A DNA stretch of 64,000 nucleotides, taken from the NCBI GenBank assembly GCA_000092065.1, contig CP000595.1. One strand, written 5' to 3'. Numbering within the stretch: position 1 is the first letter of the stretch; each line of letters opens with the position of its first letter. The stretch comes from Ostreococcus lucimarinus (Eukaryota). Of the stretch, positions 60,125 through 61,450 are shown piece after piece. The position numbers and the translations under genes are program-made. The notes beneath the pieces were generated by a model. It saw only the letters and a list, made by a program, of their open reading frames with translations. It was not told the DNA's origin and did no database searches.

Positions 60125-61450
60125 TCACGCGCGTTTCTGACGCTTGAGTTGAGCGAGCGTGGGCACAGCTCGCGCCATCGCGACACGCACGGATGTGGCG
60201 AACGTATCCTTCACACCCACGTCTCGCGCTGCTTTGGAAGATTGCAAGACGAAGACGCACGTGTCGTACGGCGACGCTCGATAGGGATCGCGCCGTTGAT
60301 GCGAAGCGCCGTCGCAATATCCGTGGTCGACCGCGGCGATGAGTACGTTCGCTCGAAGAAACGCGCTGTTTGTGAGCGCATCGAACGCGCCCGTCTCTTT
60401 CCATCCCGGCATGATGAAGACAAACGTGAGCGCGTTTTGTGACTTCTCCGCGCGTTCGAGCAACGCCTCGCACCAGAGGGCGGCCTCGTCCAAGACCTCG
60501 CGCACGAAAGGTGGATTTACCTCGTACGACCCTCTCGACGGTTGAAACGCCGCGAACGAGCCGATGCTCCCGAACGGGGCGTCGACGTCGCCGAAAGCGC
60601 TGCAAAATCGCGCGAAGTACGCGTTCATGGGCGACGCGAAGCACTCCATCGTAACCTTCAGATCATCGTGCAACACGCGGAAGACGTCGTGCGAGCACGC
60701 CGCTTGGAATCCATGGCCATGAATCGTTTTGTACCTAAGCAACAGCGCGAACATTCTGTCGTGCACGTCGTCGTCACCGTCGTCGTCGCCGCCGGCGCGC
60801 GAGTGCTTTTCGTAAAGCGCGCGCAACTTGCCGTACGCCTCGTGCGTCAACTTGACCAAGTAATCGTCGCCAAGCGTCAAATCTCGCGAGTGTTTATGTA
60901 TCGTCAATTTCGTCGCCGCGAGCTTGGCCAGACCGTGCGCGCCACCGTCCACCAGTTTCTGTTTCATCGCCTCCAACGCGACGACCTCCTTCGCCGACGC
61001 CGCGCACACCGACGCCTCAATCTCGATGGCGATCGCCTCCGAGACCCCCGCGCGCATCAAATCGTTCGCCATCGTCCCTTTCGTCGCGCCGTCGTGCGCG
61101 ACGTTCGGAAACATGGCGTCCGTGTTCTCCCCCACGAGGCCGCACGCGCCTCGTCTCCGCCGTTTCGTCTTTCCCTTTCCCGCCGCCGCCGCCGTTCGTC
61201 CCCGCGCCTCCTCCGCCAACTTCGTCGCGAACCTCCATCGCTCGAGCGCCAGCTGCGGCGGCGCTTCCAGTCCCCCCCTCCGTTCGCACGCCGCTCGAAA
61301 CGCCTCTCGCACGCGTTTCATCGCCTCCGCGCGTCTCGCCTCGCAGTGCGCCGCCGCCCGCGCGCTCCGCGCCGTCGCCCGCGCGCACGCCGCGTCCACG
61401 CGCACGACCGCCGCGTCGTGTTCGACCGCGAAGTCGTACGATTGACCCAT
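60125..61450 (-). CDS. PCIF1-like (CAPAM-type) putative N6-adenosine methyltransferase carrying the NPPF catalytic motif
   Basis: EVNPPFVREVLDEA (the NPPF motif of N6-A methyltransferases), with flanking helical regions similar in order to the PCIF1 methyltransferase domain. The internal ATG (MGQSYDFAVEH) is residue 161. Upstream codons are (ACG)n/(GAC)n low complexity. Confidence 0.5.
   Translation of the reverse strand: MGQSYDFAVEHDAAVVRVDAACARATARSARAAAHCEARRAEAMKRVREAFRAACERRGGLEAPPQLALERWRFATKLAEEARGRTAAAAGKGKTKRRRRGACGLVGENTDAMFPNVAHDGATKGTMANDLMRAGVSEAIAIEIEASVCAASAKEVVALEAMKQKLVDGGAHGLAKLAATKLTIHKHSRDLTLGDDYLVKLTHEAYGKLRALYEKHSRAGGDDDGDDDVHDRMFALLLRYKTIHGHGFQAACSHDVFRVLHDDLKVTMECFASPMNAYFARFCSAFGDVDAPFGSIGSFAAFQPSRGSYEVNPPFVREVLDEAALWCEALLERAEKSQNALTFVFIMPGWKETGAFDALTNSAFLRANVLIAAVDHGYCDGASHQRRDPYRASPYDTCVFVLQSSKAARDVGVKDTFATSVRVAMARAVPTLAQLKRQKRA

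Follow-up and report, generated by a model that had tools for sequence, protein, structure and literature searches.

The window analyzed here, the whole 64,000-nucleotide stretch of DNA, carries on its minus strand a gene whose product is almost certainly a member of the PCIF1/CAPAM (PF12237) family of methyltransferases. The gene is real and, judging from its conserved motifs, probably encodes an active RNA adenine methyltransferase. The best explanation for it, to which we assign a probability of roughly 60%, is that its product is a SAM-dependent PCIF1/CAPAM-family N6-methyltransferase acting on the cap-adjacent adenosine, its presumed substrate. According to this reading, a nuclear gene of Ostreococcus lucimarinus would give rise to a CAPAM-type RNA adenine-N6 methyltransferase that uses SAM and has no WW domain, the module by which animal PCIF1 is anchored to the phosphorylated Pol II CTD. 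Through its NPPF motif, this enzyme would methylate N6 of the first transcribed, cap-adjacent adenosine in transcripts made by Pol II, and a conserved N-terminal motif might serve in its recruitment or nuclear import. The reading is supported by the end-to-end match to PF12237, PDB matches confined to CAPAM, the predicted fold, the invariant family motifs, the retention of the equivalents of human R235, W588, and Y618, the reported activity of a distant Trypanosoma cruzi homologue, and the reported dispensability of the WW domain for catalysis. The role as the writer of cap m6Am is weakened by the replacement of E558 with Arg, by the deletion of the P591-P592 pair, and by the existence of three Ostreococcus tauri paralogues that are nearer to human PCIF1, one or another of which could be the cap m6Am writer instead.

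The family assignment was made by profile and sequence searches. With hmmscan, PF12237 was matched over its full length (profile positions 1 to 176 of 176; residues 208 to 381 of a 441-aa version of the protein) with an E value of 6.3e-60 and a score of 202.2 bits, compared to a cut-off of 31.1 bits. At E<=1 this was the only Pfam family matched, and neither PF05063 (MT-A70; METTL3/14/4) nor PF00398 (RrnaAD; KsgA/Dim1) was found. The Pfam name of PF12237 is PCIF1_WW, yet the profile models the methyltransferase region. When the protein was compared to all PDB chains with phmmer, only zebrafish (E 3.7e-36) and human (E 1.2e-33) CAPAM/PCIF1 were matched over residues 197 to 405, together with a second, weak match at the first helix of the helical domain (residues 31 to 81), where APPQLALERWRF aligned with EPPRESFNRW of 6IRX/6IRV. 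The diagnostic NPPF motif named in the original prediction is indeed encoded within the CDS, in the context SYEVNPPFVREVLDE, and was invariant in all 47 aligned homologues. Four residues such as NPPF are by themselves estimated to occur by chance about once per six-frame translation of 64 kb; the context of the motif, which consists of a full-length PF12237 match and the CAPAM matches, takes it far beyond chance. The family-wide motifs RY, ECFASPxN, DxDxxFGSxGSF (putatively SAM binding), PxW, and HxxxxG were likewise invariant across the 47 homologues and the window protein.

The predicted structure agreed with these searches. An AlphaFold2 (AF2) model of a 515-aa version of the protein, generated with a 47-sequence alignment, had a mean pLDDT of 87.6 and a pTM of 0.87. 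A Foldseek search of the PDB with this predicted, not solved, structure returned six CAPAM entries (6IRV, 6IRW, 6IRX, 6IRY, 6IRZ, and 6IS0) with E values of approximately 1e-21 to 1e-24 and TM scores of 0.62 to 0.71, in alignments of about 520 columns that spanned the Rossmann domain as well as the helical domain specific to CAPAM. Beyond CAPAM, the next match was the flavivirus NS5 methyltransferase at an E value of 0.02, and all other methyltransferases were at 0.02 or above. The protein is thus modeled as a two-domain CAPAM catalytic unit, in which the helical domain would be packed against the Rossmann methyltransferase domain. The PCIF1-type identity that had been proposed from the letters alone was upheld by the profile search, with its single matching family, and by the AF2 model, which matched the CAPAM crystal structures across both domains; the similarity was not confined to NPPF and, by phmmer and Foldseek, reached the helical and methyltransferase domains of CAPAM.

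The window protein was 100% identical to XP_001421800.1 of Ostreococcus lucimarinus CCE9901 (the same sequence as ABP00094.1 and UniRef100_A4S8Q2, which bears the UniRef name "PCIF1 WW domain-containing protein") over the 398 aa of the whole RefSeq model, which identifies the window as O. lucimarinus nuclear DNA and confirms the green picoalgal source that had been suggested. The RefSeq entry falls in the 90% cluster of the best database match. Related members carry the name "phosphorylated CTD-interacting factor 1" in JGI metagenome annotation. The ORF ends with a stop codon at 60125 to 60127, and its frame is open upstream to 61930, giving a maximal ORF of 601 aa. The CDS had been predicted to run from 60125 to 61450; its stop coordinate was correct, and its start, an ATG that yields the 441-aa version including the NPPF context, is probably too short. 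The same is probably true of the RefSeq start at 61321, which corresponds to M44 of the 441-aa version. A conserved motif lies in frame upstream of 61450 (Table 1), and the true start was therefore placed upstream of that position. Candidate upstream ATGs are found at 61672 (515 aa) and 61732 (535 aa), with a further alternative at 61804, and on the grounds of conservation, not transcripts, the first two are the most likely starts. The 515-aa version is the minimal model that would fit the conserved N-terminal motif.

Table 1. Features of the PCIF1-family gene and its product, in positions of the window
Feature	Position	Strand	Evidence
PCIF1-family methyltransferase CDS (probable start)	60125..61672	-	ORF list/translation, XP_001421800.1 identity, in-frame N-terminal conservation with homologues
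Conserved basic/G-P-L-H-x-x-T motif KTPRRRWTAGPLHALTKAKA	61511..61570	-	BLASTP, recurrence in homologues, AF2 pLDDT
CAPAM-type helical domain (predicted), approximately aa 90-281 of the 515-aa model, including the conserved APPQLALERWRF helix	60830..61405	-	phmmer, AF2 secondary structure, Foldseek
Arg aligned with human R235, helical domain	61238-61240	-	residue mapping
PF12237 (PCIF1) methyltransferase domain, Rossmann-fold core	60308..60829	-	hmmscan, phmmer versus CAPAM chains
Catalytic NPPF motif, equivalent to human N553-F556	60506-60517	-	translation; aligned to human and zebrafish NPPF
Trp of PGWKE, equivalent to human cap-contact W588	60401..60403	-	residue mapping; invariant alignment column W424 (47 homologues)

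The conservation continues in frame beyond the ATG at 61450 in the upstream direction, in close homologues (P0002 and P0003) as well as in more distant proteins (Pseudoscourfieldia P0005, Chlamydomonas sp. UWO241 P0040, and others). With BLASTP, the upstream translation in this frame matched the N terminus of P0002 with an E value of 5.5e-7 and gave a dozen further weak, consistent matches at the KTPRRRWTAGPLHALTKAKA motif. This segment aligned with KRRRVTTGPLHELTKAK, KMRVTTGPLHVLTGEAATGAG, and similar segments of homologues, and motifs of the same type occurred at an equal relative position in P0008, P0018, P0040, P0016, P0013, and others. The other two upstream frames, including an acidic one, gave only low-complexity matches with BLASTP. 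In the predicted model, the block of residues 41 to 50 within the N-terminal motif segment had a pLDDT of 86. A motif profile HMM built from 39 distant homologues, with the Ostreococcus clade excluded, did not detect the upstream region of the window among six-frame ORFs. The N-terminal extension therefore rests on the pairwise matches, that to P0002 and the many weaker ones, and the motif was taken to be partly degenerate in Ostreococcus.

The extension from 61451 to 61672 is very rich in Thr and Arg, with 30 Thr among its 74 aa. The Thr run is coded by ACG repeats read from CGT/CGA-rich DNA, and in the +2 frame this DNA would be translated as poly-Asp. Public gene models differ in length (398, 515, 517, 535, and 537 aa), a disagreement that low-complexity, frame-ambiguous 5' ends may explain.

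The observation that the N-terminal WW domain of animal PCIF1 is not evident here held in a wider search: at E<=1e-3, the 601-aa ORF and the alternative, acidic frame upstream contained no WW domain, and neither did any of the 47 aligned homologues, all of which matched PF12237 only. An N-terminal WW domain is "usually fused" in the PCIF1 family (PMC4738411). Its reported role is to bring PCIF1 to the Ser5-phosphorylated Pol II CTD, and methylation reportedly does not depend on it (PMC8287941; PMC4738411); its absence thus bears on recruitment and not on the enzyme family.

The window protein shares its lack of a WW domain with a set of homologues from diverse eukaryotes, and its sequence places it in a WW-less subfamily common to green algae, haptophytes, dinoflagellates, and chytrids. 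Members include proteins of Pseudoscourfieldia marina, Tetradesmus obliquus, Chlamydomonas sp. UWO241, Polarella glacialis, Prymnesium parvum, Emiliania huxleyi (XP_005771821), and chytrids, to which the window protein is 33 to 64% identical over the full length. Features held in common are NPPFV, PGWxE, DHG[FY]CDGASHxRxDPYRxSPYDT, an N-terminal H-x-x-T motif, and a C-terminal KRQxR tail. Compared to the other members, the Ostreococcus protein has a Thr/Arg-rich N-terminal region, and its motif lacks the TGxG...GRRAR...LWD continuation. Three signatures, NPPFV-x-x in place of NPPF-x-E-E, PGWxE, and DHG[FY]CDGASH, support a distinct subfamily at the sequence level. In a neighbor-joining (NJ) tree, the window protein grouped with those of Pseudoscourfieldia, Tetradesmus, Polarella, haptophytes, and Chlamydomonas UWO241 with 63% bootstrap support, apart from the animal/choanoflagellate group; deeper nodes were unsupported, with bootstrap values of 3 to 43%.

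Identities were calculated over 169 well-occupied columns of the methyltransferase core. The window protein was 81% and 77% identical to P0002 and P0003, respectively, which are close relatives from metagenome and sequencing-run assemblies, and 64.5% identical to the Pseudoscourfieldia protein. Its identity to the three O. tauri sequences OUS47426.1, XP_022838967.1, and XP_003080912.2 was only 48%, 39%, and 37%, respectively, and therefore none of these is the orthologue of the window gene. Identity to human PCIF1 was 37.6%, whereas the same O. tauri proteins were 44%, 45%, and 50% identical to human PCIF1 in the methyltransferase domain. The O. tauri paralogues, which belong to the same family and genus and have an intact NPPF, thus each resemble human PCIF1 more than the window protein does, and two of the three keep NPPF-D-E-E (the NPPF-x-E-E context that contains human E558), which the window protein does not. 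A search for paralogues in O. lucimarinus itself, made with a column-trimmed version of the O. tauri XP_003080912 domain, returned four fragments; a query trimmed in this way breaks the word index. Judged from the O. tauri sequences, the window gene is one of several PCIF1-family paralogues in the genus. Since paralogues nearer to animal PCIF1 exist, membership in the family does not establish the window gene as a cap m6Am writer.

The residues of the cap pocket were then considered. In zebrafish CAPAM, m7G is reported to be contacted by the residues equivalent to human R235, E558, W588, P591, and P592 (PMC13290413, a secondary source). These were mapped through an HMMER alignment and not by superposition, with the offset of 164 checked on NPPF, W588, and the 612-638 loop. 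By this mapping, two of the five contact residues are kept in the window protein, R235 (within ERWRF) and W588 (within PGW), as are N553-F556, the G486/G488 pair, and Y618. The position of E558 is taken by Arg and varies across the subfamily, the P591-P592 pair is deleted both here and across the subfamily, and Y633-H637, a segment of the substrate-binding loop, has diverged. On the evidence of these residues, catalytic competence is likely; cap recognition is not secured by sequence.

Set beside vertebrate PCIF1/CAPAM (6IRV to 6IS0), the window protein therefore has the same PF12237 domain, predicted helical plus Rossmann methyltransferase architecture, NPPF motif, and R235, W588, and Y618 equivalents, at an identity of approximately 38% in the methyltransferase core and approximately 19 to 20% over the whole structural alignment. 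Unlike the vertebrate enzymes, it has neither a WW domain nor a long linker and carries the subfamily-specific N-terminal motif instead, in addition to the three changes in and near the cap pocket described above. To the kinetoplastid homologues (T. cruzi and T. brucei), it is approximately 39 to 40% identical in the methyltransferase core. Among these, EKF28590 (T. cruzi) and XP_844905 resemble it in having NPPFV without an E558 equivalent; in these two proteins PxW is replaced by PSH, and the kinetoplastid context is that of a cap 4 spliced leader. A T. cruzi PCIF1 homologue converts m7GpppAm RNA to m7Gpppm6Am, according to the statement in PMC11417388 that cites Pandey 2020.

The foremost alternative to a cap-adjacent methyltransferase, possible although clearly less probable, is that the window gene encodes an active member of the PCIF1 family that has come to use a substrate other than that of the animal enzyme, and that another Ostreococcus paralogue makes canonical cap m6Am. 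Such an enzyme might act on a non-mRNA transcript of Pol II, on a transcript of Pol III, on a 5' adenosine that is uncapped or carries a different cap, or on an adenosine within the RNA; it might also add a second methyl group to give m6,6A. The presence of at least three other O. tauri family members, all nearer to human PCIF1, is consistent with this alternative, as are the separate algal/haptophyte/dinoflagellate clade of the NJ tree (63% bootstrap), the replacement of E558 and the deletion of P591/P592 across the subfamily, and the subfamily-specific N-terminal motif found in place of the WW domain. Conversely, the protein retains the same overall fold, including the helical domain that forms the CAPAM cap pocket jointly with the methyltransferase domain, and the R235 and W588 equivalents are conserved. 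In addition, T. cruzi EKF28590 also lacks E558, and a T. cruzi homologue is active on capped Am RNA by the account cited above, although the protein assayed is not established as EKF28590; finally, the deep nodes of the tree are unsupported (3 to 43%).

A more specific proposal, which we regard as speculative, is that the gene represents an ancient WW-less PCIF1 paralogue lineage of green algae, haptophytes, dinoflagellates, and chytrids with a remodeled cap pocket, in which E558 has been lost and the PP loop deleted, the N-terminal basic/G-P-L-H-x-x-T motif acts as a substitute recruitment or active-site element, and the target is other than that of canonical PCIF1. If this were true, distinct 5'-end marks in Ostreococcus would be written by several enzymes of the PCIF1 type.

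It is improbable that the protein is a catalytically dead scaffold with a non-enzymatic role in transcription, by analogy to Drosophila Pcif1. That protein has NPPH in place of NPPF and Drosophila makes no m6Am (PMC9479742), and the honey bee reportedly lacks m6Am despite a near-canonical motif. The window protein differs in that NPPF is intact and the family-wide motifs, including the putative SAM-binding DxDxxFGSxGSF, are invariant in it and in the 47 homologues, and it has no WW domain with which such a scaffold would bind the CTD.

That the gene is not cellular but part of a DIRS1-type tyrosine-recombinase retrotransposon, with a methyltransferase domain derived from PCIF1, was ruled out with near certainty: DIRS1 polyproteins do carry such domains in diverse eukaryotes (Iyer et al., PMC4738411), but the scanned ORFs of >=220 aa between 48 and 64 kb included no tyrosine recombinase, reverse transcriptase, or RNase H, all scanned ORFs with a Pfam match were ordinary cellular genes, the 64-kb window has a single PCIF1-like copy, its catalytic motifs including NPPF are intact whereas DIRS1 copies are described as degenerate (PMC4738411), and orthologues lie in conserved cellular neighborhoods in related algae.

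We return to the preferred reading, a WW-less CAPAM-type enzyme acting on the cap-adjacent adenosine, to consider how much of it is new. It had been suggested that an algal homologue would inform the evolutionary distribution of cap m6Am; that subject is already covered by PMC4738411, PMC8868631, and database annotation. A 2022 survey (PMC8868631) traces PCIF1 to LECA, and its PCIF1 alignment includes the same three O. tauri proteins compared here; O. tauri is also among the species abbreviations of Iyer et al. (PMC4738411). The gene is thus already catalogued, the presence of the family in such algae is published, and the evolutionary point is not new. The suggested absence of PCIF1-type enzymes from land-plant models agrees with one published dataset, the alignment of PMC8868631, in which the entries numbered 24 to 28 are missing; from the taxon table of that study, we infer that these slots belong to Cyanidioschyzon, Arabidopsis, Selaginella, Physcomitrella, and Chlamydomonas reinhardtii. 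The named homologues found in our search came from Pseudoscourfieldia, Tetradesmus, Chlamydomonas sp. UWO241, Polarella, Prymnesium, Nannochloropsis, and chytrids. The value of the analysis lies in a correct annotation and in little beyond it. The points that remain are the probable N-terminal truncation of the public gene model, the several Ostreococcus paralogues, and a WW-less subfamily for which we found no biochemical characterization. Ostreococcus would offer a compact, haploid system for testing cap-adjacent adenine methylation in a photosynthetic eukaryote.

High gene density is usual for the O. lucimarinus genome, and the PCIF1-family gene is closely flanked by others. Genes nearby encode a C2-domain protein, a lysine methyltransferase, an NAD-binding/CIA30 protein, EMC2, and an MRS2 Mg transporter, as well as an ALKBH6 homologue, a CCCH zinc-finger protein, and an amino-acid transporter. 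The lysine methyltransferase gene (50524-52179, minus strand) belongs to the Methyltransf_16 family (E 1.5e-18), lies approximately 8 kb away, and is unrelated to PCIF1. The ALKBH6 homologue, an AlkB-family 2OG/Fe(II) dioxygenase of 333 aa (58307-59308, plus strand), matched PDB 7VJS with an E value of 1.9e-23 by phmmer and PF13532 with 30.1 bits, just below the cut-off of 31.2. Approximately 800 bp, including one small ORF, separate it from the PCIF1-family gene. A writer/eraser pair was considered and rejected: in two related picoalgal contigs (L001 and L003), the orthologue of the window gene is flanked by tRNA_bind/LTD and Npa1 genes and has no AlkB gene in its vicinity, and the adjacency seen here was taken as a coincidence in a compact genome. 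The intervening ORF (59355-60035, minus strand; 226 aa), which begins downstream of the methyltransferase gene approximately 90 bp after its stop codon, is acidic and coiled-coil-like in composition and gave only sub-threshold Pfam matches (FUSC and Neugrin).

On the other side, the product of the divergent gene at 62102 to 63001 (plus strand) is rich in Gly and Arg, has a single CCCH zinc finger (PF00642, E 1.3e-6) in its C-terminal part, and probably binds RNA. The short intergenic region that separates these two divergent genes contains a CGATCG-rich palindromic element (61850-61928), in which CGCGATCGATCGATC is repeated with a 28-nt spacing and inverted repeats of 23 to 34 nt abut each other; this element may be a bidirectional promoter element.
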